The position numbers and the translations under genes were made by a program. A DNA stretch of 64,000 nucleotides from an uncultured Porphyromonadaceae bacterium (GTDB taxonomy: Bacteria; Bacteroidota; Bacteroidia; Bacteroidales; Muribaculaceae), in assembly GCA_947174235.1 (NCBI GenBank), contig CAMWID010000002.1, positions 62,833-126,832 on the forward strand, written 5' to 3'. The notes under the pieces were generated by a model, which was not told the origin of the DNA, made no database searches, and was given only the letters and a program-made list of their open reading frames with translations. This document shows, piece after piece, positions 26,037 through 52,729 of this stretch (positions are counted from its first letter, which is position 1; every line of letters starts with the position of its first letter).

Positions 26037-26042
26037 ATATGT

Positions 26043-26152
26043 TGAATTTTGAATTTTAAAAAGTGGGTTTTGGGTTTTGATGTGCTCACTTTGTTCGCAC
26101 TACACTCAAGAAAAGCTCATGCATTATGAATTATGCATTATGCATTATGCAT
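26043..26152. repeat. Heptamer tandem repeats in the permease-kinase spacer
   Basis: ttgaatt-ttgaatt at ~26042-26055; catgcat-tatgaat-tatgcat-tatgcat-tatgcat at 26118-26152. Confidence 0.75.
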
Positions 26153-26161
26153 TGATAAAGC

Positions 26162-27349: not shown

Positions 27350-27372
27350 ATGTAGATTGAGTGTCAAAAATT

Positions 27373-29217: not shown

Positions 29218-29388
29218 AAGTGGTTTAATTGATTTCTTAAAATTGATGAACCTTGAAAACATTCTTTTTACCATGCAGAGGCAGGAGGAGGACTCCATGC
29301 CGGAAAACTTATCAAAGGATGTCGGCTGATAGCCATGAGAAATTTTCACAATGCAAAACTACAATATAAAGGAAAGTCGCGATATAAC

Positions 29389-29417
29389 AAATGATGCGTT
29401 ATGTGTAAAAAATGTTG
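29389..29417. promoter_or_regulatory. Candidate HTCS binding site (AAATGATG...AAATGTTG, 21-bp period) between divergent promoters
   Basis: Lies between TAGTTTTG (minus, 29354-29361) and TAATTTTG (plus, ~29468-29475); similar pairs at 32363-32389 and 44125-44152. Confidence 0.45.
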
Positions 29418-29494
29418 AATGTCATAATAAATTATAGGAATTACATTTTTTTTCATAGGATTATGCTTAATTTTGCGGGAAATAACTGCATATC

Positions 29495-32236
29495 ATGAAA
29501 AAATTAATCGGCTTAATATTGACAGTCCTATCGCTTGCGGTCATAGTGTCATGTGGAACTGATAAAAAATACAGGATCGGAGTTTCCCAATGCAGTCAGG
29601 ATGACTGGCGTGCGAAAATGAACGATGAGATCAACCGAGAGATCATGCTTCACGAAGATGCGGCGGTAGAGATACGCTCGGCGAATGACGACAGCCGCAA
29701 ACAGATAGAGGATATAAGATATTTCGTGGATAATAAATTTGATATCCTCATAGTCTCTCCCAATGAGGCAGCCGCCCTCACGCCGGTGATAGAGGAGGTA
29801 TATAGAAAAGGTGTTCCGGTGATAATATTCGACCGCAATATCAACTCTGATTCCTATACAGCGAGGATTGGTGTGGATGACAAAGGTCTGGGTAAATCCG
29901 CTGCCCATTATGCATTGCATCTTTTGGGAAAGGAACCCAAGGCTATCGAGATTTTCGGTCTCCCCGGATCCACCCCGGCTGAAGACCGCCATTCCGGATT
30001 TGTGAATGAATTTACATCCCGGGGAGGTATACTGCTGGCAAGCGAGGCGGGAAACTGGAACAAGGAAGATGCCATCCCCCTTGTCGATTCGCTTCTCAGG
30101 GTTTACAATGATGTGGATCTTATATTCGCCCATAATGACAGGATGGCTATAGGAGCGTCGGAAGTGGCTTCAAAAGCAGGAAGGAGAGACATAAAGATAA
30201 TCGGTATAGACGCGGCTCCGGAAATCGGGATAAAGGCGGTGACGGACGGTGTGATAGATGCCACATTTCTTTATCCGACGGAAGGTCACAGGCTTATACA
30301 GACGGCATTGCATATATTAAAGGGTGAGCCTTATGAGAAGGAAACCTTGATTCCGGTATCGTCAGCCGTAGACAACACCAACGCCGATATCCTGTTGCTC
30401 CAGAATGAAACTCTCAATGCCGAGACCGGAAAAATGAAAGTCTTGAAGAGCCGTATCGACGACTATTGGGCGCAACATTCGTCGCAGACGTTTCTTTTTT
30501 ATGCCAGCATCGTCATCCTCGTGCTGCTTAGCGGCTTCCTTTTCCTTCTGTTGCGTACGTTCTGGATGAACAAGCGTCATCAGGCTGTCCTTCTTGACCA
30601 AAACAGGCTGCTTGAGGCGGAGAGGGACAAGCAGAAAGAACTGAACCGGAAGCTGGAGGAAGCCACACAGTCCAAACTTATGTTTTTCACCAACGTAAGT
30701 CATGACCTGCGCACACCTTTGACATTGATATCAGAACCGGTGTCACAATTGGCTGATGCCCCCAATCTTACGTCGCAGCAACATGCCCTGATGAAAATAG
30801 CTGATAAAAACGTCAGGATACTTCACCGTCTGATCAACCAGATACTTGATTTCAGGAAATATGAGAACGGGTTGCTGAAACTTCATCTGACAGAGATAGA
30901 TTTCAGCAAAGTTGTGGCGGACTGGATGGATTCTTTCAGGGAGATAGCCAGGAAAAGGGATATCCGATTCCATCTTGAGACACCCTCCGGAGGGGAACAG
31001 GTGAATATGGCAGTGGATGTAGAAAAGCTTGAACGTGTGTTTTTCAACATTGTCTCCAACGCTTTCAAATACACAAGAGACAACGGCGTGATCACGGTCT
31101 CCTATGCGTTGAGCGACAATAATCTCATATTGAAGGTAAGCGATACCGGCGAGGGTATAAGCGAACGTGATCTCGGAAATATATTTGACCGCTTTTTCCA
31201 GGTGGAACGCGTGCATCCCAAAGGCTCCGGCATAGGATTGTCGCTGGCAAAAGCTTTCGTCGAGCTTCACGGAGGCGAAATAAGTGTGGAAAGTGAAGTC
31301 AGCAAGGGTTCTGTGTTCACAGTGACGATACCCGTGATTCATGTGGCGGAAAAGGTAGAGAATGTCACAAAAAATATAGGAGCCGACACAGTGGAGTCGG
31401 AACTCGGTCAGATAGAGGGAGCCGCTGATTTTGATCAGAACAAACCTGTGCTTCTTGTGATAGACGATAATGAGGACATACGCCGGATGGTGGGTGAACT
31501 TATGGGTGACGACTACAATATAGTAACAGCCTCAAATGGTGCCGAAGGAATAAAAAGAGCCGCCAAGTATGTGCCGGATCTTATTATATGTGATGTCATG
31601 ATGCCGGTCATGAACGGACTTGAATGTTGCCGAAGGATCAAGGAGGAGGTTTCCACTTCACACATACCGGTGCTGATGCTGACGGCATGTTCGATGGATG
31701 AGCAGCGTGCGCAGGGATATGAAAGCGGTGCGGACGGCTATCTCTCGAAGCCGTTCTCGTCTCAGGTTCTCAAATCGCGTTGCACCAACCTTATAAAAAA
31801 CAGGATGCGCATAAAAGAGGTGTGGGGAAATCCTATGGTTGCCGCCGTGTCTGCGCCAAAGACAGAGAAGAATGACAAGAAGCAGGTATCAAAGTCTTTG
31901 GAGGTGGAGAATGCTTTTTATGCGAGGTTTCTTGAGATTTTTGATACGGAAATGGGTAATGCTGATGTGAGCGTCGACAGTCTCGCGTCTGAAATGGGTC
32001 TTGAGCGCACACAGTTTTACCGTAAGATAAAGGCACTTACCAACTATTCTCCGGTAGAGCTGATGCGTACGCTCCGTCTTAAGAAAGCGCGCACCCTTGT
32101 CACCGGGACAGACAAGACCATAAGCGAGATAGGCTATGAGGTAGGATTCTCCACTCCGGCGTATTTCACCAAATGTTACAGGGAGGCTTACGGAGAGACT
32201 CCTACGGAAACAAGGTCAAGACTCGGCGGAAGCTGA
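29495..32236 (+). CDS. Hybrid two-component system 1 (periplasmic sugar-binding domain-HK-RR-AraC), BT1754-like fructose sensor
   Basis: RIGVSQCSQDDWR sensor; H-box FFTNVSHDLRTPL; GSGIGLSL; receiver CDVMMP; AraC EVGFSTPAYFTKCY. Confidence 0.93.
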   Translation: MKKLIGLILTVLSLAVIVSCGTDKKYRIGVSQCSQDDWRAKMNDEINREIMLHEDAAVEIRSANDDSRKQIEDIRYFVDNKFDILIVSPNEAAALTPVIEEVYRKGVPVIIFDRNINSDSYTARIGVDDKGLGKSAAHYALHLLGKEPKAIEIFGLPGSTPAEDRHSGFVNEFTSRGGILLASEAGNWNKEDAIPLVDSLLRVYNDVDLIFAHNDRMAIGASEVASKAGRRDIKIIGIDAAPEIGIKAVTDGVIDATFLYPTEGHRLIQTALHILKGEPYEKETLIPVSSAVDNTNADILLLQNETLNAETGKMKVLKSRIDDYWAQHSSQTFLFYASIVILVLLSGFLFLLLRTFWMNKRHQAVLLDQNRLLEAERDKQKELNRKLEEATQSKLMFFTNVSHDLRTPLTLISEPVSQLADAPNLTSQQHALMKIADKNVRILHRLINQILDFRKYENGLLKLHLTEIDFSKVVADWMDSFREIARKRDIRFHLETPSGGEQVNMAVDVEKLERVFFNIVSNAFKYTRDNGVITVSYALSDNNLILKVSDTGEGISERDLGNIFDRFFQVERVHPKGSGIGLSLAKAFVELHGGEISVESEVSKGSVFTVTIPVIHVAEKVENVTKNIGADTVESELGQIEGAADFDQNKPVLLVIDDNEDIRRMVGELMGDDYNIVTASNGAEGIKRAAKYVPDLIICDVMMPVMNGLECCRRIKEEVSTSHIPVLMLTACSMDEQRAQGYESGADGYLSKPFSSQVLKSRCTNLIKNRMRIKEVWGNPMVAAVSAPKTEKNDKKQVSKSLEVENAFYARFLEIFDTEMGNADVSVDSLASEMGLERTQFYRKIKALTNYSPVELMRTLRLKKARTLVTGTDKTISEIGYEVGFSTPAYFTKCYREAYGETPTETRSRLGGS

Positions 32237-32263
32237 CCGAAAACTGACCGTAAGCGAAATTTG

Positions 32264-32315
32264 CGCTCCATGGATTTCCATCATTTTATGACCGGATTCC
32301 ATGGGGCGTTTTTTT
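32264..32315 (+). terminator. Terminator after HTCS1
   Basis: cgctccatgga/tccatggggcg stem followed by 7 T. Confidence 0.7.
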
Positions 32316-32470
32316 GAGACCGTAACGTCAGATTTTAATTTTTTCAGCTTTCTTTTGCACGAAATTGATGTGCGATGATATAAATGTTGCGTAATTTATA
32401 AAAAAACGTGCTTGCAATGAATTTTGATAGTACAGACAACATGAATTATATATGCCGGATTCTCCAGATG

Positions 32471-32631
32471 TTAATTTTGCGGCAGAATTTTAACCAAAAC
32501 TAACATAACATGAAAAAAGAAATCCTCAGCGCACTCATGATCCTTTTCACGGCGGTCATGATGCAGGCACAGGAGATCACTGTGCAGGGAAAGGTGATTT
32601 CGCGTGTGGACGACGAGCCGCTGATCGGCGC
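32471..32631 (+). repeat. 161-bp perfect direct repeat, copy 1 (-7 element, 5'UTR, first 40 codons of susC1)
   Basis: Base-for-base identical to 44512-44672 (offset 12,041); mismatches at both flanks. Confidence 0.95.
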
Positions 32632-35548
32632 GTCTGTGATATGTGAAGTCACAAAGAAAGGGACGTCAACGGATATTGACGGAAGTTTTACACTGAAGGT
32701 GCCGGAAGGAGCGTTGTTGAAAATATCTTATGTGGGATATACCTCTGCCGAAGTCAAGGCGGCTCCCGAACTGACGGTATATCTTGACGAGGATGCCGGA
32801 CTGCTCGACGAACTTGTGGTGGTCGGCTATCAGACGGTAAGGAAAGCGGATCTCACAGGTGCGGTGTCTGTGATGGACTTGAAAGATCCCCTCAGTGAAA
32901 ATTCCGGAAATATCATGAGCTCCATGGCAGGGAGACTGCCCGGTGTGAATGTAGTTCCTGACGCCGCTCCAGGCGGGACCGGCTCTATCCGGGTGAGGGG
33001 TATGTCGACTGCAAACTCAAGCAACGACCCCCTTTATGTGATAGACGGTGTGCCTACCGACAATATCAATATAATAAACCCCGGAGATATAGAGACAATG
33101 CAGGTGCTCAAGGATGCGGCTTCCGCATCTATCTACGGATCACGTGCGGCAAACGGAGTGGTCATAATCACTACCAAGCATGGGAAAGGTGACAAAATGA
33201 CGATAAACCTGAATTATGCACTGAGCGCCCAGACGGTGGCTAAACGCTATAAAATGTTGAATGCCGAACAATGGGGGCAGGCATATTGGATAGCGTCGCG
33301 CAATGCCGGAATGGAACCGTCGATCCCGCTTTATGGCAACGGAGACGTTCCCCATCTTGTGGAATATGTCAACGGCAATACAAATTTCCCGACAACCGAC
33401 ACCGACTGGCAGGATCAGGTCTATCAGACTGCATGGACCAACAATCTTACCGCCTCGGTATCAAACAATACGGAAAAGGGGGCAGTATTGTTCTCCATGA
33501 ACTATATCAATCAGACCGGCAATATCATATCTTCATTCTATCGTAGGTATTCCGCACGTATAAATTCGCGGTATGATTTTGGCAAATATATCACGGTAGG
33601 AGAAAACCTTGTTATAGCGAATTGGAAAAACAGAGGTGTGGACGTGACCGGCGACCGAGGAATCCCGTTCACTGCCATGAGCCAGCATCCCGCACTCCCG
33701 GTACGTGGAGTCAACGGGGACTGGGCACGTCCTCTCGAACTTATTGGCTCGGATCTCGCCAATCCTGTGCAGCTCATAGACAACGCCCGCGACAATGACC
33801 TTTCAAACTGGAGGATACTCGGCAACGCATATCTTGAAGTGAAGCCGGTGGACGGTCTTGTGCTTAAGACAAATATAGGAATAGAGCACAGCCAGTATTT
33901 CAACAATATGCTCGGCCGCAGAGTAAATCCCGGGGATGTGAACAGTATGAGTTCAGTTTACGGTCAGGGAGACACCTGGACATGGACCAACACGGCAAAC
34001 TACAATAAGACATTCTCCGACAGTCATCATCTCATGGCACTTATAGGTTCGGAGGCGATAGGATATACTTTCAAAGACCTTTCCGCATCACGTGAGGATT
34101 ACATGTTTGAAGACACTGATTTCATGCAGATCGGCGCAGGATCAGGCACCCGCAACAACGGAGGCGGGAAAACCCAGTGGAGCGTCTTCTCTCTGTTCGG
34201 CAAGATCGATTATAATTATTCCGACCGTTATCTGGCATCTTTTACAATACGAAGAGATGAAAATTCCAGATTCGCGAAGGGTAACCGTTCGGGTGTGTTC
34301 CCGGCTTTCTCTCTGGCATGGCGTCCTTCCGCAGAATCTTTCTGGCGTGGCAACACGGTGCTTACAGACATTAAGGTGCGTTATTCATGGGGTCAGAACG
34401 GCAATGCCAACATTCCGCCGCTTTATCCATCCTATTCCACATATATCTACAACACCGGGAACGGCGCATATGATATCTCAGGAACAAATTCGCAGACCAC
34501 ACCGGGCATAACCCTCGCTTCTTCCGGCAATCCGGATCTCAAATGGGAGACCACAACCCAGAACAATATCGGTGTCGATCTTCAGTTTTTCAACGGGGCT
34601 GTGAATCTGACGGCAGATTATTATATCAAGAAGACCACCGATATGCTCACTATTCCGCCCGCGCTGGATGTGGCGGGAGAGAATGCCGCTATATGGCTCA
34701 ATACCGGCAGCATGCGCAATAACGGATGGGAAGTGTCGTTGCAATATGTCAGTCCTTCTTACGGAGATTTCTCATGGAACGGCTCACTGAATGTCTCTCA
34801 ATATAAAAACAAACTTCTTAATCTCAATTCAGTCCAGAAGTTTATCGGCGGCGATGTCCGTCTGATTCCCGGAGAGGCAATGGGCGTTTATTACGGCTAT
34901 GTGTGTGACGGTATTTTCCAGAATGAGGCAGAAGTCGCCAACCATGCCCGCCAGACCGGGGCGGCTCCCGGACGCCTGATCTACAGGGATCTTGACGGAA
35001 ACGGAGTCATCGACGACAATGACCGCTGCATAATAGGCAATCCGAATCCTGAGGTTTCGTTAGGATTGAATCTCGCGTTTAAATATAAGGCTGTCACTCT
35101 TGACATGTTCTTTGCCGGAGATTTTGGGCAGGATCTTATCAATCACATGAAAAGGCAGCTGTATTCAATGAACTACGGCAATCTTACAACCAACAGAAGT
35201 GTGGATGTGCTCAATGCCTGGACTCCGGAGAACAAGAGTAGCGATATTCCAGCCCTCTCACTTACCGATGACAACAACGAAGCGAGATTCTCTTCATATT
35301 ATGTGGAAAACGGATCGTATATGAAGATGAAATATCTGAAACTTTCGTATTCATTTCCTGAAAAGATTGCCAATACTATCGGAGGAAGAGGTATAGATGT
35401 CTACGGACAGATCGAGAACGTGTTCACTCTCACGAAATATAAAGGGCTTGATCCCGAATTGCTCCCGGGGACATACGGGTCACTCACTGACAACGGTGCC
35501 TATCCGCGTCCAAGGACGTATACAATAGGAGTCAATATCCAGTTCTAA
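32510..35548 (+). CDS. susC: SusC-like TonB-dependent transporter, fructan module 1
   Basis: PLYVIDG, LKDAASASIYGSRAANGVVIITTK, ends GVNIQF. Confidence 0.95.
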   Translation: MKKEILSALMILFTAVMMQAQEITVQGKVISRVDDEPLIGASVICEVTKKGTSTDIDGSFTLKVPEGALLKISYVGYTSAEVKAAPELTVYLDEDAGLLDELVVVGYQTVRKADLTGAVSVMDLKDPLSENSGNIMSSMAGRLPGVNVVPDAAPGGTGSIRVRGMSTANSSNDPLYVIDGVPTDNINIINPGDIETMQVLKDAASASIYGSRAANGVVIITTKHGKGDKMTINLNYALSAQTVAKRYKMLNAEQWGQAYWIASRNAGMEPSIPLYGNGDVPHLVEYVNGNTNFPTTDTDWQDQVYQTAWTNNLTASVSNNTEKGAVLFSMNYINQTGNIISSFYRRYSARINSRYDFGKYITVGENLVIANWKNRGVDVTGDRGIPFTAMSQHPALPVRGVNGDWARPLELIGSDLANPVQLIDNARDNDLSNWRILGNAYLEVKPVDGLVLKTNIGIEHSQYFNNMLGRRVNPGDVNSMSSVYGQGDTWTWTNTANYNKTFSDSHHLMALIGSEAIGYTFKDLSASREDYMFEDTDFMQIGAGSGTRNNGGGKTQWSVFSLFGKIDYNYSDRYLASFTIRRDENSRFAKGNRSGVFPAFSLAWRPSAESFWRGNTVLTDIKVRYSWGQNGNANIPPLYPSYSTYIYNTGNGAYDISGTNSQTTPGITLASSGNPDLKWETTTQNNIGVDLQFFNGAVNLTADYYIKKTTDMLTIPPALDVAGENAAIWLNTGSMRNNGWEVSLQYVSPSYGDFSWNGSLNVSQYKNKLLNLNSVQKFIGGDVRLIPGEAMGVYYGYVCDGIFQNEAEVANHARQTGAAPGRLIYRDLDGNGVIDDNDRCIIGNPNPEVSLGLNLAFKYKAVTLDMFFAGDFGQDLINHMKRQLYSMNYGNLTTNRSVDVLNAWTPENKSSDIPALSLTDDNNEARFSSYYVENGSYMKMKYLKLSYSFPEKIANTIGGRGIDVYGQIENVFTLTKYKGLDPELLPGTYGSLTDNGAYPRPRTYTIGVNIQF

Positions 35549-35564
35549 AAAATCAGAAAACAAT

Positions 35565-37241
35565 ATGAAATCTCTAAAACAATATATTAAAGAGACGGTC
35601 TTGATGACGGCGGCTGTCTCGTCAGGCTTCGCGTGCACGTCATGCGGCGATATGCTCGACACAAAACCGCAGGGTCAGTTCACCGCAGGACAGATTGGGG
35701 AGGATGAGGCTTCCGACCTTATGACTGCCGCTTATGCCACACTTCTTTGTCATTATTTCGGCAACAACGAGTCGTTTGCCGGTCCCATCAACAACTGGGT
35801 CATAGACCTTCGTTCGGACGATGCCCTCAAAGGTGGTGACGGAGTTACCATGGAAGGCTATATGCATCAGCTTGAAATAGGCAATGTGCAGAGCGACAAT
35901 GATGTCATAAATTTCAAATGGCGCAACAATTATTTTTCTATTTCGCGATGCAACACGGCGATCAAGGCGATTCTTGCGGCAGGTAGTCTTTCTGAATCGG
36001 CAAAAGCGGCGTATGTCTCGGAAATGAAAACGCTGCGTGCATACTACTATTTCGATATGTTCCGTCTGTTTAAGAAATTCCCTTATTTCGACGAGACAGT
36101 CGCAAATCCCTCTCAATGCCGTGCGGATGAATACAGCCGTGACCAGATAGCGGGTTTTATACGTCAGGATCTCAGAGATGCTTATGACAACCTTCCCGAA
36201 AGTCAGGAGCAGGCGGGCAGATTCAACAAATATGTGGCGGCATCTATTCTCGCGAGAGTAGATCTTTTCCTTTCCGAATGGGAAGAGGCTGAGAAATATG
36301 CGGGACTGGTGATATCATCCGGCAAGTATGAGCTTTATCCCAATTTTCTGGATATGTCGAAGCCGGAATATAACAACATGTATGAGTCTGTCATGGCGGT
36401 GCAGTTTTCTTCCGCCAATTCTCCGGATCAGTTCAATTTCAACAACTGTCTCAACTGCACATGGTCGGAAGGAAACCTTTATGGAAATGGAGATGATTTC
36501 TATCTTGCATCGCAAGACCTCGTGAACGCTTTCCGCACAGACGCCAACGGTCTTCCCTATCTTGAGGGGAATCAGAACTCCGAAAGTGTCCTTTCCGCCG
36601 ATTATGAAGGGAATGTGGATCCGCGCCTTGATTTTACCGTAGGAAGGATCGGGATGCCATGGCGGTCACACATGTATAATGAAAGATGGTGCCGCAATCT
36701 TGAACTGTATGGTCAGTATTCCGGCAAAAAGCCTTATCCGGCGCCTGAGTCTCCTTATGTAAAGCCGGGTATCGTGCCATGGGGCGCCTCTTCTCTGAAT
36801 TATATCATAATCAGATATGCCGACGTGCTCCTGATGAAAGCCGAGGCGCTGATAGAACAAGGCAAAGATCTTGATGAGGCGAGAAATCTCGTGAATATGG
36901 TAAGGGCAAAGGCGGCGAGGTCGGTAGATCCCCGGTATGAGCCGATAGATATCAATCCGCAGATCGCCAATTATGCGGTTGGGCAATATTCCGCGACATC
37001 CTGGAATCAGGATTATGCTCGCAAGGCTGTGAGGCATGAGCGTCGTGTGGAACTTGCCATGGAAGGTCTCAGATGGTTTGACCTCCTGCGCTGGGGAACC
37101 GCCATCGAGACTGTCTCAAAATATTATCAGTTCGAGACAGCTTTCCAGCCGTATTATTCTTCGGCAAGTCTTTCGGAAGATGAGTTGTATTTCCCTATTC
37201 CACTCAACCAGAAAGACAACGCCGGTGACCTTTATAATTAA
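35565..37241 (+). CDS. susD: SusD-like lipoprotein, fructan module 1
   Basis: Lipobox CTSC; RSDDALKGG, DPRLDFTVG, IRYADVLLMKAEA, ERRVELAMEG. Confidence 0.93.
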   Translation: MKSLKQYIKETVLMTAAVSSGFACTSCGDMLDTKPQGQFTAGQIGEDEASDLMTAAYATLLCHYFGNNESFAGPINNWVIDLRSDDALKGGDGVTMEGYMHQLEIGNVQSDNDVINFKWRNNYFSISRCNTAIKAILAAGSLSESAKAAYVSEMKTLRAYYYFDMFRLFKKFPYFDETVANPSQCRADEYSRDQIAGFIRQDLRDAYDNLPESQEQAGRFNKYVAASILARVDLFLSEWEEAEKYAGLVISSGKYELYPNFLDMSKPEYNNMYESVMAVQFSSANSPDQFNFNNCLNCTWSEGNLYGNGDDFYLASQDLVNAFRTDANGLPYLEGNQNSESVLSADYEGNVDPRLDFTVGRIGMPWRSHMYNERWCRNLELYGQYSGKKPYPAPESPYVKPGIVPWGASSLNYIIIRYADVLLMKAEALIEQGKDLDEARNLVNMVRAKAARSVDPRYEPIDINPQIANYAVGQYSATSWNQDYARKAVRHERRVELAMEGLRWFDLLRWGTAIETVSKYYQFETAFQPYYSSASLSEDELYFPIPLNQKDNAGDLYN

Positions 37242-37268
37242 CGAGTTATTCAAATTGATGCAGACGAT

Positions 37269-38738
37269 ATGAAATCTATATTAAGAAACGGTTTATTCGG
37301 GGTGGCAATCTCCTTTGCCTGCGCATTTACCTCATGTGGAGAATTTGAACCTACCGGCTATGATGCCGTTCCGGATCTGGCTACCGCCAACTCCCTCAAG
37401 GCGGAGGTGAACGGCCATACGATCAATGTGAGCTGGGAACTTCCTTCACGCGGAGATATATCTTCCGTGCTGTTTATAAAAAATGCTGACACATCCAATC
37501 CTGTGACACTCGCTTCCGACGCCACGTCAATTCAGGTGAAAGGTCAGCCAATGGGTGTGGAAGGTCTTTTCACGGTTAAAATTTGTTATGCCGACAGATA
37601 TGTGTCGGATGGCGTTTCTGTAACGGCAGTCCTTCCAGTTGAAGAGCTTCCGGGTGTAAGTGATCTGAAAAAAGAGATTTCCGGACGAACGGTTACCCTT
37701 AGCTGGTCATTGCCGTCGGGTGGGGATATAACCGGAGTGAGGGTGTTCCGTGACGGGAACACGGATGCCGCCATAACGTTGCCTGCAGGATCCACATCCT
37801 GCGAGCTTAAGGCGCAGCCTATGGATGTTGACATGACTTATACCGTTGAAGTGATCTATGATGAGTATTATCCTTCTGACGGAGTGTCGATCACTGCCAA
37901 GGTTCCGTATATTGCTCCTAAAATGGGATACCTGCTTCTTGCGGAGAAGTGGCAGGATCTTCCGGATGATGACGAACGCGCGGCTGCTGAATGGTTCTCC
38001 GGTCAGGAGAATGCGGAGTTTATCCGTCCGTCGCAGGTGGCAGACCTTGACGCTGACCTTTATCCTGTGGTCTGGATAGAAATAGATCGTGTCGGGCTTC
38101 CTTTGGGATGGGAGAACCTTCCATCAGAAGTGACTTCTCCGGACGTGATCGAAGCCCTTAGGTCATATTCGGCAAACGGAGGCAGTCTTTATCTCGCCAA
38201 TATGGCGACACAGCTTACGGTGCCGCTCGGAATGGTGCCTGCCGACATGGCTCCGACGGTATATGGCAACGGAGACGGAGGCACAGGCGATGACGTATGG
38301 GTGATCAATCCTTATCTCGGCTGGGATTTCAGGGATGGCAGTGACCAGGGGTTCTACGACCGCACGTCGCACGCAATCTTCAAAGACCTCGTATTGGAAG
38401 ATCCTAACAATTATGGATATGACAACCTTCCCCTTATCGGTCCCGGTCAGCGTGAAGATCATAACTGTCTGTGGGATTGCAATATTTATGGCAGAGGCAA
38501 CCAACCGGACGTAATAAGGAATTTCGAGGTCACAACCGGCTCCCTTGTACTCGCGACATGGGGACACGTAAGGGATCATTGCGTGGCGGGTCTGGTAGAG
38601 TTTTATGCCAACGGCACTCACGGCGCCTGCGTGGCAAATGGGTTCGCAGCTTATGAATGGAATCAGAACTCAGGACCCAATCCTTATAAACACAATGTGG
38701 AACAGCTCACAAAAAATATTCTTGATTATCTTAAATAA
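37269..38738 (+). CDS. SGBP lipoprotein with two tandem FN3-like repeats and DUF4960-like C-terminal domain
   Basis: Lipobox FTSC; repeats SWELPSRGDI...SDGVSVTA / SWSLPSGGDI...SDGVSITA; PDDDERAAAEWF, EDHNCLW, NILDYLK. Confidence 0.8.
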   Translation: MKSILRNGLFGVAISFACAFTSCGEFEPTGYDAVPDLATANSLKAEVNGHTINVSWELPSRGDISSVLFIKNADTSNPVTLASDATSIQVKGQPMGVEGLFTVKICYADRYVSDGVSVTAVLPVEELPGVSDLKKEISGRTVTLSWSLPSGGDITGVRVFRDGNTDAAITLPAGSTSCELKAQPMDVDMTYTVEVIYDEYYPSDGVSITAKVPYIAPKMGYLLLAEKWQDLPDDDERAAAEWFSGQENAEFIRPSQVADLDADLYPVVWIEIDRVGLPLGWENLPSEVTSPDVIEALRSYSANGGSLYLANMATQLTVPLGMVPADMAPTVYGNGDGGTGDDVWVINPYLGWDFRDGSDQGFYDRTSHAIFKDLVLEDPNNYGYDNLPLIGPGQREDHNCLWDCNIYGRGNQPDVIRNFEVTTGSLVLATWGHVRDHCVAGLVEFYANGTHGACVANGFAAYEWNQNSGPNPYKHNVEQLTKNILDYLK

Positions 38739-38743
38739 CCGCC

Positions 38744-38784
38744 CATGCCACAGGACACCGTTTCAGACGGTGTCCTGTGGCATG
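38744..38784 (+). other. Perfect 18-bp stem-loop between SGBP1 and GH32 (no U-tract)
   Basis: catgccacaggacaccgt-ttcag-acggtgtcctgtggcatg. Confidence 0.8.
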
Positions 38785-38803
38785 CAAAATAAAAAAGCTT
38801 ATA

Positions 38804-41188
38804 ATGAGGAAAAAAGCACGAATATCAATTTTATCTGCTGCAATTTTGGCATCGTTTTCTTCTCATGCTGATATTGTGGCTCATTTTTCAATGGATGTCA
38901 AAGATGGCAGGATAGAAGAGACTGTAAGCGGCGACAAATTCGAGGTTGAAGGTAATTTTGTTCCGGAGAATGTGGCGGGTGCAGTTGGAAAGGCTCTCCG
39001 TTTTGACGGATATACCTCTCATATAAAAGGTGTGTTGGGAGACATTCTTCCCACCGGATGCCGGAAAATGACTGTGTCGGCTTGGGTGGCGGTGCCATGC
39101 TATCCTATAATACAACTTGACACTGACACTTCCGAAAAAACAGCGATATTGTCGTGCCTTGATGATAAGAACAAAACCGGGTTCGGGTTTTATCTTGGAT
39201 TTGACGGAAAGTATTCTTTCCGGATGTTCATAGACGGCTGGCCTGTCAGCATCGATGTCAATTCGCCGTTGCCTACTTATCGCTGGAACAACCTTGTGGC
39301 GGTGGTCGACTGCGACTCCAAGACGGCGATATTATACAACAACGGTGAAGAAGCCGGGAGATCAAAGGTGAACGGCAGCATCTCGTTCGAGGCTTCCGAT
39401 TTTTACATGGGACAGGGTGAAGAGTCAAGAATGTCAGGGCCGTTCCAGCTGATGTCGTTCAACGGATTGATAGATGACATCTCTGTATGGGACGAAGCTC
39501 TTGAAGTGGGGGAGATACAGGGCGTCGTGCCGGAAAACGAACCTGATCTTGATATCCCTGCATCCCGTTTTGCGGACGATATATTGCGTCCGAGATTTCA
39601 CGGTATGCCTGCAGCAGGATGGACAAACGAATGCCACGGGATGTATTATTCGGATGGACGCTATCATCTGTTTTTCCAGAAAAACGGGGATGGCCCGTAT
39701 ATGGCGAGACTGCACTGGGGACATATTTCGAGTGAGAATCTGTATGACTGGCGCGAAGAAAAGATCGCGCTGGCTCCAGGCGAATGGTATGACATAAAAG
39801 GATGTTGGAGCGGCTGTGTGTTTTCTGACGATGTTATTACCGGCGGGGTTCCGAACGCCATATATACTGCAGTGGATTATTCCAAAGCGATGATAGCGCA
39901 GGCAGCTCCTGAAGATGCGTCTCTTGACAACTGGACTAAACTCGGATCCAATCCAATAATAAACGGACGTCCGTCTGGATTGTCGGATGACATAAGGGAT
40001 CCATATTTTTTCCGTGACGGAGACAACGCTTACATAATTGTCGGAACCTCGAAAGACGGGGTGGGAGCCGCCACACTCCATCGGTATGATGTGTCTTCAG
40101 GGAGGTGGAGCAATAACGGAGACATGTTTTATACCGGAACGTCGCTGTCGCAGGATGGACGTTTCTGGGAGATGCCTAATATCACACGTATGCCGGACGG
40201 ACGCTGGCTGTTCACCGCGACCCCTCTTGAGACAATGCAGGGGGTACGTACATTGTATTGGGTAGGGAATATCAGCAGTGAAGGAAAATTTGTACCTGAT
40301 CCGGATTTTTCTACCCCCGGACTCGTCGAGATGAACTCAAAGGAAGGATTCGGAATGTTGTCACCCACAATATATCAACATGACGGAAAGACGATAGTAT
40401 TGGGTATCGTGCCTGATAAATTGGGCTCTGTGACTAATTGGAATCTTGGATGGGCACATTGCTATTCGTTGCCGAGAGAATGGAGTCTCGCCGGCGACGG
40501 TACCCTTTTGCAAAAGCCGTATGAAGGGCTGAGCGGTCTGCGTACATCGGTGATGTATTCACGCGAAGGCTTTGATCTCGAAGGGTCAGAAGATCTTTCC
40601 CCGGTAGAGGGGAGATCAGTAGAGTTGTGCGGTGTGTTTGAAGTAGGATCATCTCCGTTCGGATTCCGAATCTTCAAGAATGGTTCCTCTTCCGCCGACA
40701 TCACGTATGATCCCGCCTCGGGTGAGCTTGTGGCTGATTTCAGCCGGATACAGAGACTCGTGAATGACGGAGGGGTATATGACGGGGTGTACCGGTGTCC
40801 GCTTCAGGAAAAACCGAAGTCGGGAGATGATTTAAAAATCAATGTATTCATAGACCATTCGATATTGGATATATTTGTCAACGACAGATATGCCACATCG
40901 ATAAGAGTGTTTCCCACAGACAGTGATGCCGACGGAATAGAGGCTTATGCCTTATCACCGGTAAAGGTAAAAGATCTGAAGGCGTGGATTCTGGATGTGG
41001 ACAGTGGCTCTTCAGGCATAAATCAGGTGTATGGAGATAATGGCTCCGGTGGCGCCAAGAAAGTCGATGTCTATAATCTTTCCGGAATCAGGCTGCCTTC
41101 GCAGGTTGATTCCGGGTCAGCGACGGAAGGTCTTCCTGCCGGAATCTATATAGTAGGAGGACGCAAGGTGATTGTGGATAGCATTTGA
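38804..41188 (+). CDS. Multidomain GH32: LamG/ConA-like N-terminus, GH32 catalytic and C-terminal domains, T9SS-type C-terminal signal
   Basis: Signal peptide; GKALRFDGY, WNNLVAV, FNGLIDDISVW (LamG-like); WTNECHG, RDPY, WEMP; FIDHSILDIF; tail VYNLSGIRL...GLPAGIYIVGGRKVIV. Confidence 0.85.
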   Translation: MRKKARISILSAAILASFSSHADIVAHFSMDVKDGRIEETVSGDKFEVEGNFVPENVAGAVGKALRFDGYTSHIKGVLGDILPTGCRKMTVSAWVAVPCYPIIQLDTDTSEKTAILSCLDDKNKTGFGFYLGFDGKYSFRMFIDGWPVSIDVNSPLPTYRWNNLVAVVDCDSKTAILYNNGEEAGRSKVNGSISFEASDFYMGQGEESRMSGPFQLMSFNGLIDDISVWDEALEVGEIQGVVPENEPDLDIPASRFADDILRPRFHGMPAAGWTNECHGMYYSDGRYHLFFQKNGDGPYMARLHWGHISSENLYDWREEKIALAPGEWYDIKGCWSGCVFSDDVITGGVPNAIYTAVDYSKAMIAQAAPEDASLDNWTKLGSNPIINGRPSGLSDDIRDPYFFRDGDNAYIIVGTSKDGVGAATLHRYDVSSGRWSNNGDMFYTGTSLSQDGRFWEMPNITRMPDGRWLFTATPLETMQGVRTLYWVGNISSEGKFVPDPDFSTPGLVEMNSKEGFGMLSPTIYQHDGKTIVLGIVPDKLGSVTNWNLGWAHCYSLPREWSLAGDGTLLQKPYEGLSGLRTSVMYSREGFDLEGSEDLSPVEGRSVELCGVFEVGSSPFGFRIFKNGSSSADITYDPASGELVADFSRIQRLVNDGGVYDGVYRCPLQEKPKSGDDLKINVFIDHSILDIFVNDRYATSIRVFPTDSDADGIEAYALSPVKVKDLKAWILDVDSGSSGINQVYGDNGSGGAKKVDVYNLSGIRLPSQVDSGSATEGLPAGIYIVGGRKVIVDSI

Positions 41189-41329
41189 GCGTGGGTCTTA
41201 AAACGTATGCGGGATTTTGTCAAAATGAAGAGACAAGATCCCGTTTTTTTATGCCATTAATTTGACTGTCCGGGATAAAAGAATTATTTTTGCAGAGCAG
41301 TTTATGACAATCAGAGACTTCTGTACTAT

Positions 41330-44083
41330 ATGAAAAATTCCAATATACTTTCATTCATATTATTTATATTTCTGACAGCTATTTTTTCTCCCGGATGTGG
41401 AAGAGGCAGCCATAAAAAATTCAGAGTAGGGGTGTCACAGTGCAGTGGTGATTATTGGCGCTCAAAGATTAATGAAGATATTCAGAGGGAGCTATTGTTT
41501 CATGATGATGTGGAGATCGAGATAAGGTCGGCAGATAATGACAACGTCCGCCAAGAGGCTGATATCCGATATTTCATGGACAACGGTTTTGACCTTATAA
41601 TCGTGTCGCCCAATGAGGCGGCTCCTCTGACACCTGTTGTCAGCGAAGCTTTCAAAAAAGGGATACCTGTCGTGACGTTCGACCGCAGGGTGGAAGGCGA
41701 TGATTTCACAGCCCATATGGAGGTTGACAATTACGAACTTGGAAAGTCAGTGGCACAGTATGCCTGTTCTCTGATAAAGCACCCCTTAAGGGTGATAGAG
41801 ATTCAGGGCAAGAGGAGCACCTCTCCCGCTATAAGACGGCACGAGGGTTTCATGGATGAGATTCAAAAGTATCCCCATGCGAGTGTTTTGGCGAGTCCGG
41901 AGGGTAACTGGAGCGATGTAGAGGCGGAACGTCTCACGGATTCATTGCTTGATATATATCCTGAAACCAATCTTATATATGCACATACAGACTTTATGGC
42001 TATCGGGGCATCGAAAGCAGTGGATAGGGCAGGAAGAAATGATATATATATCATTGGAATCGATGGGTTCCCCGACGATGGAATCCGAGCTGTAAAGGAG
42101 GGGAGAATGACCGCCTCTTTTCTATATCCGACAGAAGGGGAACGGATTTTGAGAATAGCTATGGCAATTCTCAACGGCGAGAAGTATGAGAGGATCACGC
42201 AGGTGCCGCCATTGTCGGCGGTTGATAAAACCAATGCGGATATCATCCTGTCACAAGACTCGCTCCTCACAAGCGAGACCGCAAAAATTAATCTCTTGCG
42301 AAGTCAGCTTGACGAATATTGGAACCGTCACTCCATGCAGACTCTCCTGTTGTATGCCGTTATCGTGATCATGCTTCTTCTGGGAGGGCTGATTTTTGTA
42401 TTGCTGAAGACAGTAAATTCCAACCGCAGGCACCAGAAAACGCTGGAACAAAAGAACACTCAGCTTGAGACAGAGCAAGAGAAACAGAAAATGCTTTATG
42501 AAAGACTTGAGGAGGCGACACGGTCAAAACTGGTATTCTTTACAAACGTGAGTCATGACCTCCGGACTCCGCTGACTTTGATCTCAGGACCTGTTGAACA
42601 ATTGGCGGAAGCTGATTATCTCACGCCCCGTGACAAATCGCTGATGCTTATGGCACGTAAGAATGTGAATATTCTCGGCAGGCTTATAAATCAGATTCTT
42701 GATTTCAGGAAATATGAAAACGGCAAGACTGATCTTGTCCTTTCAGAGGTGGATCTGCCAAAGTTGATCGAAGAATGGGTCGAGGCTTTCAGGGAGATGG
42801 GGAATAAAAGAGATATAAGGCTCGTTTCAGACATCTGCCGCTCCGGTTCGGGAATGACAGCGGTGGATGTGGAGAAGATGGAAAGGGTCTTTTTCAACCT
42901 TATGAGCAATGCTTTCAAACATACACCCGACAACGGGGTCATAAAAGTGGCATATTCAACCGACGGAAGTTCTGTTTCTATTTCAGTCAAAGACAACGGG
43001 GAAGGGATATCCAAAGAGGACTGCGGCAGGATATTCGACCGTTTTTTTCAGGCGGATAAGGAAAGACCGAAAGGCTCGGGAATCGGTCTTGCATTGACAA
43101 AGGCATTTGTGGAACTGCATGGCGGCATGATATCCGTGGATAGCGAGAAAGGTCGCGGGAGTGAATTTGTCGTGACAATTCCCGTGCGCCACTGTGACAT
43201 GAAGGCGGGTAGTGTGATTCCTGCAACCGTCACCAGGTCGGATATAGAGGCGGAGTTGTCGTTTGCCGAAGATGATACTGAAAAGTTTGATTCCGATAAA
43301 CCGATCATACTTGTCATAGATGACAACCGTGACATACGCCGGATGATAAGGGATCTGCTGGAGGACAGCTATAATATCATCCATGCCGGGGATGGGTTTC
43401 AGGGCGTCAGAATGGCGGTGAAGTATGTGCCTGATCTGATTATATGTGACGTTATGATGCCGGAGATGGACGGTATGGAATGCGTACGTCGTATAAAGGA
43501 TGAGGTTTCCACGTCTCATATTCCTGTCCTCATGCTGACTGCCTGCACTCTTGACGAGCAGCGGGCGGAAGGGTATGACAACGGTGCCGACGGTTATTTG
43601 TCGAAGCCGTTCAGCGGTTCAGTCCTTGCGGCAAGATGTCGCAATCTTCTCCTCAACCGGAAACGAATAAGCGATCTCTATAAAAACGGGGTATCACACC
43701 CGATAGCCGGGAAGGATAAGACCCGGTTGCCACAGTCAGGGATCAAAACGCCGAATGATGTGGAGAGTGAATTTTATTCCGGATTTGTAAAAATAGTGAC
43801 ATCACGTCTTTCCGACACGAGTCTGAATATTGAGGAGATCGCGTCAGAGATGGGATTAAGCCAGTCACAGTTTACAAGGAAAATAAAAGCCCTCACCAAT
43901 TATACACCGGTTGAAATAATCCGAAAAATGCGTCTTAAAAAAGCGAAAACACTTCTTGCCGGCACCGAGAAGACTGTCGGTGAAATTGCTTTTGAGGTAG
44001 GGTTTAATTCTCTTGCATATTTTTCTAAATGTTACAAGGAAGAGTTCGGCATATCTCCTTCGGAGCTCCGAGGAAAGAAATAG
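41330..44083 (+). CDS. Hybrid two-component system 2, paralog of HTCS1
   Basis: RVGVSQCSGDYWR sensor; FFTNVSHDLRTPL; CDVMMP; EVGFNSLAYFSKCY. Confidence 0.93.
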   Translation: MKNSNILSFILFIFLTAIFSPGCGRGSHKKFRVGVSQCSGDYWRSKINEDIQRELLFHDDVEIEIRSADNDNVRQEADIRYFMDNGFDLIIVSPNEAAPLTPVVSEAFKKGIPVVTFDRRVEGDDFTAHMEVDNYELGKSVAQYACSLIKHPLRVIEIQGKRSTSPAIRRHEGFMDEIQKYPHASVLASPEGNWSDVEAERLTDSLLDIYPETNLIYAHTDFMAIGASKAVDRAGRNDIYIIGIDGFPDDGIRAVKEGRMTASFLYPTEGERILRIAMAILNGEKYERITQVPPLSAVDKTNADIILSQDSLLTSETAKINLLRSQLDEYWNRHSMQTLLLYAVIVIMLLLGGLIFVLLKTVNSNRRHQKTLEQKNTQLETEQEKQKMLYERLEEATRSKLVFFTNVSHDLRTPLTLISGPVEQLAEADYLTPRDKSLMLMARKNVNILGRLINQILDFRKYENGKTDLVLSEVDLPKLIEEWVEAFREMGNKRDIRLVSDICRSGSGMTAVDVEKMERVFFNLMSNAFKHTPDNGVIKVAYSTDGSSVSISVKDNGEGISKEDCGRIFDRFFQADKERPKGSGIGLALTKAFVELHGGMISVDSEKGRGSEFVVTIPVRHCDMKAGSVIPATVTRSDIEAELSFAEDDTEKFDSDKPIILVIDDNRDIRRMIRDLLEDSYNIIHAGDGFQGVRMAVKYVPDLIICDVMMPEMDGMECVRRIKDEVSTSHIPVLMLTACTLDEQRAEGYDNGADGYLSKPFSGSVLAARCRNLLLNRKRISDLYKNGVSHPIAGKDKTRLPQSGIKTPNDVESEFYSGFVKIVTSRLSDTSLNIEEIASEMGLSQSQFTRKIKALTNYTPVEIIRKMRLKKAKTLLAGTEKTVGEIAFEVGFNSLAYFSKCYKEEFGISPSELRGKK

Positions 44084-44511
44084 CCTTGTAATTCATGATA
44101 TTTATTTCCGATTTGCGCTGTAAAAAATGATGCGCGGATATAAAAAATGTTGACTCATATAATATATATGTATTGACATATAGTATTTTATATGCGACGC
44201 TTCAATGTTTTTCCATGCTTCATGACCGGATGCGGTGGCAAGCGGACCAAAGTGTGCGGGCAAGTTGCCAGGCAGTTATATATTCATTATTTATATCTTT
44301 TATACCACTGAGGGAAACAGTAAGAAATTTCTCAATGTCTTCATAATTTGTCGCCTTTAAGATATTGTTTTGTAGGAATATCTATAAGGATATTTTTGAA
44401 TCCGGGCGGTATTGTTTATAAAAAATCAGCAAACATTTGAACAATATGGGAATGTTCAGAAAAATTATGGGGTAGCCAACATATGTTATATGCCATGATT
44501 TGGAGACGGCA

Positions 44512-44672
44512 TTAATTTTGCGGCAGAATTTTAACCAAAACTAACATAACATGAAAAAAGAAATCCTCAGCGCACTCATGATCCTTTTCACGGCGGTCAT
44601 GATGCAGGCACAGGAGATCACTGTGCAGGGAAAGGTGATTTCGCGTGTGGACGACGAGCCGCTGATCGGCGC
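44512..44672 (+). repeat. 161-bp perfect direct repeat, copy 2 (-7 element, 5'UTR, first 40 codons of susC2)
   Basis: Identical to 32471-32631. Confidence 0.95.
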
Positions 44673-47600
44673 CACCGTGAGATGTGTGGACAGTAACAAA
44701 GGCACCGCCACCGACATCGAAGGCGGATTTACCATCAATGTTCCGGAGGGGGCTCTTCTGACGGTATCTTATGTAGGTTATAAGACCGTCGAGGTAAAAG
44801 CCGAACCGGAAATGACTATTTATCTTGACGAAGACACAGGGCTTCTTGATGAGCTCGTTGTTGTAGGCTACCAGACCATGAAAAAGGCCGACCTCACAGG
44901 CGCGGTTTCCGTGGTATCGACCAAATCTCTCGAGACCTCTTCCGACAGCGATCCGATGCGTGCGCTTCAAGGGAAAGTTCCGGGCATGACAGTGACAGCC
45001 AACGGCTCGCCAAGCGGCACCGGGTCTGTAAGAATAAGGGGTATCGGGTCGTTTAATGCCTCTCAGGATCCTCTGTTCGTGATTGATGGCGTACCGACAA
45101 CCGCCACCTTAAATTCATTGAACATGAATGACATCGAGAGCATGCAGGTGCTCAAGGATGCCGCATCGGCTTCAATCTATGGATCCCGAGCCGCTAACGG
45201 TGTCATCATAATCACGACCAAAAAAGGTAAAAATTCGGGGAGTGACAAAGTCAATGTCAGTTTTTCAGCTAATTTCTCGACACAGTTTTATTCTTCGCAA
45301 TCGAAAATGAAGCTTCTCAACACGCCGGAATACGCCACTGCAATGGCGCAGGCGGCTCTCAACGATGGTCTTGATCCCGCTGCGTATGCGTCGAGCTACG
45401 GACTTAACCTCAACGCCACCAGCGGCTATCCTATCAAGGTCTATGACATCGCTACAGGAGAATACCGCAATTACAAGGTCAACGGCTATTACGACGGTTA
45501 TATCAACAACAAACGCACGATGCTGATGTCAAATACCGACTGGCTTGACGAAATATCGCGCACCGGATTCTCTCAGCATTATGACATATCGGTATCAAAA
45601 GCTACTGAAAAGGGCACTTCTTTCTTCTCATTGGGCTATAAGAAAAACGAGGGTATTCTTAAGTATACCAATTTTGAAAATATCGCGGCGCGTATCAACA
45701 CATCCTACAATATATCAAAGGTTGTGACCGTAGGTGAGAATTTCACGCTGACATATACAGACCAGGTGGATTGCCAGCCTCTTGAAAACGCGCTGAAGAT
45801 GCCCTCCTCAATCCCTGTGTTCGAGATAGACGGCACAACTTACGCAGGTCCTGTGGGAAGTATGGCAGACCGTCAGAACCCGCTCCGTGAATTGGCGTTC
45901 AACAAAGACAACGCCCTGAATGTATGGCGTCTTTTCGGAAATGCATATGTCGATCTTAAACCGGTGAAAGGTTTGCTGCTCCGTTCAAATTTTGGTCTTG
46001 ACTATGACGCCGCCTTCATCCATTCCTACAATTATACGTTCCATAGCGACATTGTGAACAATGACACCAATTCAACCACCCTGTCGCAGGCAAACGATGC
46101 GAAATGGACATGGACAAATACCGCCAACTATAATTTCACATTAAACAACGATCACAATTTCATTGTGCTCGCCGGTATGGAAATGTTCCGCCAGAGCAGA
46201 ATAGATTTCTCGGCATATAACGAGAACTATGACATAGAGACTCCGGACTATATGTATCCGGACGCGTCCTCGGGAGTGGAAAGGGCAACCGGCAACAAGT
46301 CGGCATATGCGCTCGTGTCATATTTCGGCAAAGTGGATTATAACTGGAAAGATCTCCTTCTCGCTTCGTTCACAATCCGTCATGACGGCTCCTCAAGATT
46401 CGGAAGCAACAACCGTTACGGTACATTCCCTGCAGCCACCCTTGGTTACCGTCTCTCAGAGAATATCAACAAATCATGGCTTGATGATCTTAAGATACGT
46501 CTCTCATGGGGTAAGACCGGTAACCAGGCAATTTCCAACACGGCACGTTATGCCCTCTATATCGCTGACTATGGCAACGACCGCGTGACCTCTACCGCCT
46601 ATGACCTTCTTCTCCAGCAGAGCGGCATTTTCCCTTCGGGATATTATGCGAGCCAGACCGCCAATCCGAACCTCAAATGGGAAACAACAATACAGTATAA
46701 CGCGGGCGTGGATTTCGGTCTGTTCAGAAACAGGCTCACCGGATCTGTTGACGCATATATCAAAGATGTAAAGGATATGCTTATCATCCCCGCATATCTC
46801 GGATCTATGGGTGAGGGAGGCGCGTCATGGCTCAACGGTCCGTCGCTCAGAAACTGGGGTATGGAGTTCCAGGCATCTTGGAGAGACGAGCTTGCATGCG
46901 GACTCGGTTATCGCGCGTCGCTGAACCTTGACTTCTTCCGCAACCGCGTCACGTATCTTCCTTCTACCACAACCGGTTCATATGTACACACCACGACAGA
47001 GAATCTTGTGCAGTCGAAACGTCCGTTCGGATCAATCGTCGGTTATGTGTTTGACGGTCTTTTCCAGAATCAGGAGGAGGTGCTCGCCTATGGACAGGAC
47101 AACGCAAGGGTAGGAGGCATGAGATATGCCGACCTTAACGGCGACGGGAAGATCACGGCTGATGACCAGACATGGATTTTCAATCCGGTTCCCGATCTTT
47201 CGTTCGGTCTTAATGTGGAATTGAATTACAAGAATTTCGATTTCCAGATGTTCTGGCAGGGTGTGCTCGGACAGGATGTCTACAACAACCAGAAATTCCA
47301 GAATGATTTCTGGAGCGTCACAGACGCAGGCAGCAACAAAGGTGTACGTGTGCTTGACGCATGGCTTCCCGAAGTAAACACGAAATCGACAATACCGATG
47401 CTTACCACAAACAACAAAGGTGACGAGGGGAGAGCCTCATCCTACTTTGTGGAGAATGGTTCGTATGGAAAACTGAGAACTCTTCAGATCGGTTACAATC
47501 TTCCGTCGACAGTACTGGAGAGACTTCGCATGAGCAAGGCGAGAGTCTACGTCTCAGGGCAGAACCTTCTTACAATAAAGAGCTCCAGCCTTACTTGTAC

Positions 47601-52569: not shown

Positions 52570-52729
52570 CATTAGCCGGAGAAGCATATGTAATAATGTG
52601 GGCGATAGAGTGTTGGAGGAAGAGTCTGAGAATTGGTAGGGGAAACTGATTGAAATCTCGTGAATTTGGTTTATATTTGCGGCAGAATAGCAATAATCGC
52701 TTATAGTATTAATTTAAACCTGACAGAAC

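Follow-up and report, generated by a model that had tools for sequence, protein, structure and literature searches.

A probable recent gene-conversion tract at the 5′ ends of two old tandem susC paralogs in a Muribaculaceae fructan locus

Which dietary fibres a gut bacterium can use depends on its polysaccharide utilization loci (PULs), and specificity for the fructans inulin and levan is set by the SusC/SusD alleles. We describe here a fructan locus of an uncultured Porphyromonadaceae bacterium (Muribaculaceae in GTDB) in which two divergent susC genes begin with the same 161 nt, and we consider how this direct repeat arose. The window, as we call the whole stretch of DNA that was analyzed, covers 64,000 nt (assembly GCA_947174235.1, contig CAMWID010000002.1, positions 62,833 to 126,832 of the forward strand) of a draft metagenome-assembled genome (MAG) of 3.44 Mb in 138 contigs with a GC fraction of 0.467, referred to below as G000. 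Genes in the window were assigned by Pfam, and those at the fructan locus agree with the original prediction, an earlier reading of this stretch from its letters alone: two hybrid two-component systems (HTCSs) with a periplasmic binding protein (PBP) sensor, two SusC, two SusD, two DUF4960 surface glycan-binding proteins (SGBPs), a LamG-GH32 and a GH32. The features of the locus are as follows.

25155-26036, minus strand: PfkB fructokinase (Pfam)
26162-27367, minus strand: MFS transporter (Pfam)
27373-29349, minus strand: DUF4980-GH32 (Pfam)
29495-32236, plus strand: HTCS1, with a PBP sensor (Pfam Peripla_BP_4, HisKA, HATPase_c, Response_reg, HTH_18)
32437-32451, plus strand: CAACATGAATTATAT motif upstream of susC1, 20 nt before the -7 box and outside the repeat
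32471-32631, plus strand: repeat copy 1, holding the -7 box TAATTTTG at 32472-32479, the leader, the ATG at 32510 and susC1 codons 1-40; exact match to copy 2
32510-35548, plus strand: susC1, type 1 (Pfam CarbopepD_reg_2, Plug, TonB-dependent barrel)
35565-37241, plus strand: susD1 (Pfam SusD_RagB)
37269-38738, plus strand: SGBP1 (DUF4960, PF16324; levan-binding SGBP family)
38777-41188, plus strand: LamG-GH32 fructanase of module 1 (Pfam Laminin_G_3, Glyco_hydro_32N, Glyco_hydro_32C)
41330-44083, plus strand: HTCS2 (same Pfam domain set as HTCS1)
44477-44491, plus strand: CAACATATGTTATAT motif upstream of susC2, the same motif as at susC1
44512-44672, plus strand: repeat copy 2, holding TAATTTTG at 44513-44520, the leader, the ATG at 44551 and the susC2 5′ end; exact match to copy 1
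44551-47673, plus strand: susC2, type 2 (Pfam; barrel in the monophyletic type-2 clade)
47694-49433, plus strand: susD2 (Pfam)
49456-50964, plus strand: SGBP2 (DUF4960; Pfam)
50977-52497, plus strand: GH32 of module 2 (Pfam)

By its gene content the locus is predicted to be a tandem double fructan PUL of the BT1754 type, having PBP-sensor HTCSs, SusC/SusD pairs, GH32 enzymes, DUF4960 SGBPs, a fructokinase and an inner-membrane sugar transporter. The divergently transcribed PfkB/MFS/DUF4980-GH32 set adjoins HTCS1 also in G010, L033 and L050. Pfam scans of the large open reading frames (ORFs) in the 64-kb window found no recombinase domain.

The locus was compared with related Muribaculaceae loci, most of them labelled Sangeribacter. 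L077 is a second NCBI MAG locus (GCA_029056395.1) from the same MAG project as the window; X1, X2 and X3 are gut-metagenome runs of one study, represented by k=31 unitigs, with strains ~99% identical to the window; G061 is a fragmented MAG (locus L031/L073) whose contigs include C112, C347 and C335; and L034 and L036 are long contigs from different catalogues. Amino acid and third-codon identities of paralogs were computed between susC1 and susC2 and between modules 1 and 2. Trees were built from a barrel segment (+700 to +1700) and a 5′ segment (-40 to +360) of susC, and RNA families were sought with Rfam.

The perfect repeat of the original prediction is confirmed, with 32471-32631 and 44512-44672 identical over 161 nt and 12,041 nt apart from start to start. 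Identity extends leftward by 0 nt and ends rightward after base 161, and the draft genome holds just these two copies. Each holds the Bacteroidota -7 box TAATTTTG, then a leader of 30 nt, then 122 coding nt from the ATG on (40 codons and 2 nt). Given that the neighbouring paralogous sequence is ~65% identical, such a match would be expected by chance with a probability of ~1e-30 (0.65^161). The left flanks of the two copies are ~27% identical in ungapped comparison, and on the coding side third-codon identity between susC1 and susC2 is 100% for codons 1-40, 33% for codons 41-80 and 20-47% beyond. This drop marks the repeat as a sharp-edged patch. The similarity had earlier been described as decaying from the repeat into the gene; synonymous sites show no such decay, while nucleotide identity just 3′ of the repeat does run at 86-70%, because the amino acids of the N-terminal extension are conserved.

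The promoters have a common architecture around this patch. The CAACAT motif CAACATnnnTTATAT has only two occurrences in the window, one before each susC, and is kept upstream of 34/34 aligned type-1, -2 and -3 susC genes. All 34 promoters share the order CAACATnnnTTATAT, ~20 nt, TAAnTTTG, CGGCAGAA and an A-rich leader ending in AACATAACATGAAAAAAG. From this arrangement, CAACATnnnTTATAT is a candidate common operator of fructose-type HTCSs. Sequence farther upstream tracks position (HTCS1 or HTCS2 side), and the gene body tracks cassette type.

The core-promoter string TAnnTTTGCGGCAGAAT appears a third time in the window at 52672-52688, ~45 nt upstream of an alkaline-phosphatase gene that lies 3′ of module 2. 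The pattern TAnnTTTGYGGCAG has four matches in the 3.44-Mb genome, the fourth (contig C103) without AAT. In Lepagella muris (L060) the phosphatase gene directly follows module 1. These placements suggest that the phosphatase may be co-regulated with the fructan locus.

The two modules are far older than the identity of their leading ends. Between modules 1 and 2, amino acid identity is 54% for HTCS, 44% for SusC, 38% for SusD, 30% for SGBP and 30% for GH32, and in the barrel tree long branches separate types 1, 2 and 3, each of them monophyletic, as would be expected of ancient, deep paralogs. Across species, susC1 orthologs are 74-88% and susC2 orthologs 82-91% identical in amino acids. The order HTCS1-C1-D1-SGBP1-GH32-HTCS2-C2-D2 recurs in at least eight other species (G007, G010, G036, L036, L037, L038, L056, L057), where the susC 5′ ends are not identical. 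Since the same layout exists there without identical ends, and the paralogy is deep, the repeat did not create the layout.

A divergence step across species is located at the start of susC2. HTCS2 orthologs (loci L032-L059) are 56-68% identical in amino acids and 62-76% in nucleotides, compared with 82-91% and 80-93% for the adjacent susC2/susD2. The step reflects faster evolution of the regulator or else separate histories of the two parts.

Partial versions of the window's patch are found in other species. In the window, susC1 and susC2 are 100% identical from -39 to +122. In G017 they are 98-100% identical upstream of the ATG only, where the G017 contig begins; over about -50 to +350 identity is 82-98% in L036 and 76-94% in L037; G036 and L056 match exactly for 52-55 nt around the ATG; and G007 and L057 show no elevated tract. 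The two segments of susC also give conflicting trees. The barrel tree needs two changes of type label, the minimum for C1, C2 and C3, and the 5′ tree needs 10, at least seven of them forced by well-supported branches. In the 5′ tree C1 and C2 sequences are intermixed and cluster by genome or lineage, with nearest neighbours in agreement: {G000_C2,(G000_C1,L031_C1)} has support 100/98, {L034_C1,L036_C1,L036_C2} 100/100, L037 with L038 (both types) 98/98, and G036 with L056 (both types) 95/83. On these alignments and trees, the 5′ ends probably evolve in concert through recurrent interlocus conversion, independently in several species, with the tract of the window as the youngest example.

The fine structure and strain-level INTERMEDIATES of the tract lie in its mosaic make-up and in single-site differences among near-identical strains. 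G061, whose module 1 is 98.6% identical overall to that of the window, differs from the window tract in its copy 1 by eight scored differences and a 1-nt insertion after 32485. Seven of the eight lie in 32482-32552, and at these sites the window has copy-2 bases, as found in its own copy 2 and in copy 2 of G061. From 32553 to 32622 the situation is reversed, both window copies being identical to G061 copy 1 and unlike G061 copy 2. Because this mosaic is common to both copies, at least two conversion steps would be needed, one from copy 2 to copy 1 in the 5′ part and then one that equalized the 3′ part. Strains close to the window look like intermediates: X2 and X3 retain the copy-1-type G at 32499 and X1 the T of that type at 32623, two changes at 44661-2 are private to X2, and the site 32576/44617 reads A/A in the window, A/G in L077 and G/G in X3.

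We conclude that the repeat is probably a recent interlocus gene-conversion tract between the 5′ ends of the old tandem paralogs susC1 and susC2. The paralogs are diverged, the edges are sharp at synonymous and non-coding sites alike, the phylogenies of 5′ end and barrel conflict, and relatives are unconverted or partly converted. Recent gene conversion had been listed in the original prediction as one alternative; the sharp edges, the mosaic, the strain intermediates and the tree conflict make it the best explanation.

The same leader segment is a breakpoint between genomes. L034 and L036 are 89-95% identical through module 1, HTCS2 (91-95%) and the spacer, perfectly identical for ~100 nt up to ATGAAAAA, and 63% identical from codon 3 on. 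Sliding identity and alignment place the break at +8 of the ORF, after which L036 continues into a type-2 module and L034 into a type-3 module, with homology resuming downstream at 76%. A breakpoint ~680 nt into susC was also considered and ruled out, the BLAST match behind it having run through conserved plug sequence. The type-3 module of L034 is orthologous to those of L050 and L048 (75-79% nucleotide identity over 7.8 kb). In L034 it stands behind HTCS2; in L050 it stands behind an HTCS1 ortholog and next to the divergent GH32, with a promoter/leader of the position-1 type of L057_C1/G007 (~93% from -110 to +22) that then passes into a type-3 body. A given cassette is therefore found behind either regulator. 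Non-orthologous cassettes occupy the same slot with breakpoints in conserved sequence (L034/L036; L050 compared with L057 and L048), the pattern of cassette replacement by homologous recombination. The swapping of regulators and transporters that the original prediction envisaged thus holds on an evolutionary scale in relatives (L034, L050), though an origin of the layout by Campbell-type integration through this repeat is not supported.

A comparable edge separates the window from G061. The two genomes are 74-85% identical in housekeeping and downstream genes and 95-99% identical over 25183 to ~44545. The right edge of this block falls within repeat copy 2, where identity goes from 99-100% to ~81%; susC2 is only ~81% identical in nucleotides to the G061 allele, while the promoter directly upstream is 99-100% identical. 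Divergence is 4.9% over 25720-32470, 1.4% over 32632-43166, 0.9% from there to 44511 and 18.9% in the body of susC2. By maximum likelihood the first of these steps is placed at 32552 (delta-lnL 94; 2-lnL support 31618-32677). The conspecific strains of X1-X3 show the same step at copy 1, with 0.8-2.3% divergence before it and 0.04-0.6% after.

Two further observations concern related contigs. At the left edge of the block shared with G061, the small contig G061:C335 (L078, 2,899 nt) runs from DUF5106 into the first ~175 codons of a DUF6377 (SusR-like) regulator and on into a C-terminal PfkB part. In the window 13 kb, including a type V pilus operon, separate these genes; the contig reflects a deletion or rearrangement in G061, or else it is a chimera of assembly. 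A gene with AAA-ATPase_like and PDDEXK_9 (PD-(D/E)XK) domains sits in the HTCS-susC spacer at L057:12759-14321 (minus strand) and L023:3150-4763 (plus strand). It occupies position 2 in L057 and position 1 in G007, the same two genomes that lack 5′-end homogenization; with n=2 this may be a coincidence.

Other origins of the identity have to be weighed against gene conversion. An assembly artefact, in which differing real 5′ ends were collapsed or one consensus was copied to both sites, was the other alternative named in the original prediction. A 138-contig draft MAG gives some ground for it, and L077, which equals the window over 21,677 nt, has its one difference (A>G at 44617) within copy 2, making its repeat 160/161; consensus calling may have erased or created this one SNP, and the repeat may be 160/161 rather than perfect in some cells, which leaves the gene-conversion reading unchanged. 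Yet L077 independently assembles both copies, and both copies run in frame into correctly aligned divergent paralogs. In the metagenome graphs, moreover, the repeat core is a separate unitig (120 nt at depth 38 in X2, where flanks are at 16-22; 132 nt at depth 24.9 in X3, where flanks are at ~10), joined by all four unique flank unitigs, with a core depth ~2x that of the flanks in all three runs and private edge SNPs in the X2 and X3 strains. The artefact is on these grounds very improbable, and the earlier alternative is not borne out. We give just as little credence to identity without recombination, kept by extreme purifying selection on a shared regulatory and export element made of promoter core, leader and signal peptide. 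The leader is indeed conserved across species and types 1-3 (consensus TAAnTTTGCGGCAGAA...AACCAAAACTAACATAACATGAAAAAAG), and a Bacteroides thetaiotaomicron fructan-PUL promoter is 91% conserved before swapped susC/D alleles (PMC5967196). Against such selection, identity at third-codon positions is 40/40 and then gives way to saturation over the next 40, orthologs of other species are only 68-81% identical to the window in codons 1-40, and even copy 1 of G061, in spite of its closely similar module, differs at the eight scored tract sites. Chance or simple conservation as the source of identity is likewise ruled out by the synonymous-site pattern. The idea that the tract encodes a structured RNA or one of a known family was also rejected, as Rfam gave no matching family but just a 17-bit chance match, and the predicted fold is not unusual (z-score -0.7).

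The original prediction preferred a different origin, in which the 12,041-bp unit is a present or former circular plug-in integrated by a single crossover, the repeat being the duplicated crossover site, and is still able to excise or amplify. The 161 bp of the direct repeat suffice for recombination by RecA, and the proposed geometry holds, since crossing over of one copy with the other would loop out susC1-susD1-SGBP1-GH32-HTCS2. The repeats do bracket a self-contained regulator-plus-transporter unit, divergence from G061 rises from 1.4% between the copies to 4.9% left of them and 19% right of them, the change points being located in or at the copies, and cassettes are found behind different HTCSs in other species. 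Nevertheless the layout long predates the repeat, the tandem order being present in at least eight species with non-identical 5′ ends and the modules being 30-54% identical in amino acids. A single integration also cannot explain the divergence zones, because the left flank is 95% identical to G061, where ~80% would be expected of resident DNA. The mosaic with its stepwise strain intermediates is present in both copies; a single Campbell event fitted to it needs extra conversion anyway, leaves the 95% left flank unexplained and is no more parsimonious than two conversions. The single-module HTCS1-susC2 allele that was to be sought in relatives is absent from 30+ related loci, genus representatives and the X1-X3 strains. 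Loci without module 1, L033 and L032, keep C-terminal GH32 remnants, which point to ordinary deletion; L033:2766-8570 lacks susC1-susD1-SGBP1 and keeps HTCS1 (two overlapping high-scoring segment pairs, possibly disrupted) and a C-terminal GH32_1 fragment before HTCS2, so that its module 1 went by a deletion not using the leader repeats. Module unitig depth equals flank depth in X1-X3, in k=31 unitigs that are too short to span the repeat, and the window has no recombinase in its Pfam scans. An exact 42-mer of the tract had 0 matches in JGI metagenomes, a search that is uninformative on recombinant junctions. Campbell origin of the layout is therefore improbable. Rare RecA-mediated deletion and duplication are to be expected between 161-nt repeats, and excision or amplification today is physically possible, with no sign of it at detectable frequency.

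Several points weigh against gene conversion as we draw it and against the exchange of cassettes at the leader. The evidence comes entirely from MAGs or k=31 unitigs, and phasing relies on synteny with species whose copies differ, not on reads that span the repeat. Left-to-right phasing of the flanks is impossible from the unitigs, and support for the order HTCS1-susC1...HTCS2-susC2 comes from other species' contigs with differing 5′ ends (G007:C88, G061:C112/C347). X1-X3 come from a single study and L077 from the MAG project of the window, so these sources are only partly independent. For the 3′ half of the tract no conversion direction can be assigned, as no close relative of the window's susC2 allele was found. 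The divergence step at copy 1 is a support interval of ~1 kb (31618-32677) and not a point. The comparison with G061, which has just one copy of the GH32/HTCS2 region, may suffer from mis-binning or from a contig wrongly joined at the shared leader; the L034/L036 and L050 cases are independent of G061. Finally, the focus of crossovers on the leader may be no more than conservation alone predicts.

Under gene conversion, the tract would have arisen by non-reciprocal homologous recombination, presumably RecA-dependent, between the 5′ ends of susC1 and susC2. The promoter core, leader, signal peptide and start of the N-terminal extension together form the most conserved nucleotide stretch of the modules, and conservation for regulation and export would leave short runs of identity amid DNA diverged by 20-50%, in which conversions and crossovers may resolve. 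Paralogs would then be homogenized repeatedly at the leader segment, and the leader could serve as a joint at which susC-susD-SGBP-GH32 cassettes are replaced, or re-partnered with another HTCS, between genomes. The direct repeat also makes the 12-kb module a substrate for rare deletion or duplication.

More tentatively, the susC segment that runs from promoter through leader to signal peptide may go beyond passive conservation as a crossover site and be a 'universal joint' that Muribaculaceae fructan loci maintain, amounting to a cassette system anchored at the promoter and free of recombinases. We find this possible but lean against it. If it were true, modules would be re-partnered among fructose-sensing HTCSs and imported across species of ~80% average nucleotide identity, and identical joints, as in this strain, would permit reversible loss or amplification of the 12-kb module. 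The locus shows at nucleotide resolution how SusC/SusD alleles can reshuffle, the regulator and promoter staying while the transporter/enzyme cassette changes, and tandem paralogs retaining a 5′ end in common. It offers a testable route to PUL rewiring and cross-species import without mobile-element genes, and supplies in CAACATnnnTTATAT a candidate shared operator for fructose-sensing HTCSs. It is also a warning that susC 5′ ends mislead phylogeny and are weak points for assembly.

G000 contains another set of short repeats, dispersed over many contigs in at least 10 copies of ~170 nt that are 97-100% identical (for example C7:1066-1235, C7:55862-56031, C12:50259-50426, C44:4244-4414). This family, which is unrelated to the susC tract, may be a miniature mobile element or other short repeat.

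Interlocus gene conversion and concerted evolution of tandem bacterial paralogs are textbook processes, known for example from tuf genes and rRNA operons. The susC tract resembles these in being short and sharp-edged, in grouping by genome while the remainder of the gene groups by ortholog, and in having polymorphic strain intermediates. It differs in that just the promoter-proximal 5′ end of an outer-membrane transporter gene is homogenized, the barrel and its partners being 30-45% identical, and in that the same segment doubles as a breakpoint of cassette exchange between genomes. The SusC/SusD shufflons of Bacteroides fragilis are driven by an invertase, a dedicated site-specific recombinase that acts at inverted repeats to give reversible switching. 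They share with our locus the identical 5′ ends of susC paralogs, through which one promoter there couples to alternative susC/susD bodies; in contrast, direct repeats are present here, every copy comes with a promoter and regulator of its own, and the 64-kb Pfam scans found no recombinase.

Among fructan PULs, strains of B. thetaiotaomicron carry SusC/SusD alleles that are 49%/39% identical in amino acids at the same place, behind a promoter that is 91% conserved (Joglekar et al. 2018, PMC5967196). That system has a fructose-type HTCS like ours, and its allele divergence is near the 44%/38% between susC1/susC2 and susD1/susD2, but the alleles there are in different strains, whereas here they stand in tandem in one genome. 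The article describes no breakpoint mapping, conversion tract or recombination mechanism, and the word 'recombination' occurs in it 0 times. Pudlo et al. (2022, PMC8845570) explained the mosaic PULs of B. ovatus and B. xylanisolvens through homologous recombination at core 'node' genes on either side. As in our comparison, non-orthologous PULs or cassettes occupy the same slot, and the exchange is ascribed to homologous recombination after chromosomal transfer that leaves no mobile-element genes; unlike here, the crossovers are in housekeeping genes outside and whole PULs are exchanged, while those at the Muribaculaceae locus fall inside the PUL, a few dozen nt from the susC start codon. The underlying processes are thus known, and what is new is their setting, with both allele types in tandem, their 5′ ends in concert and breakpoints within a few dozen nt of the start codon.

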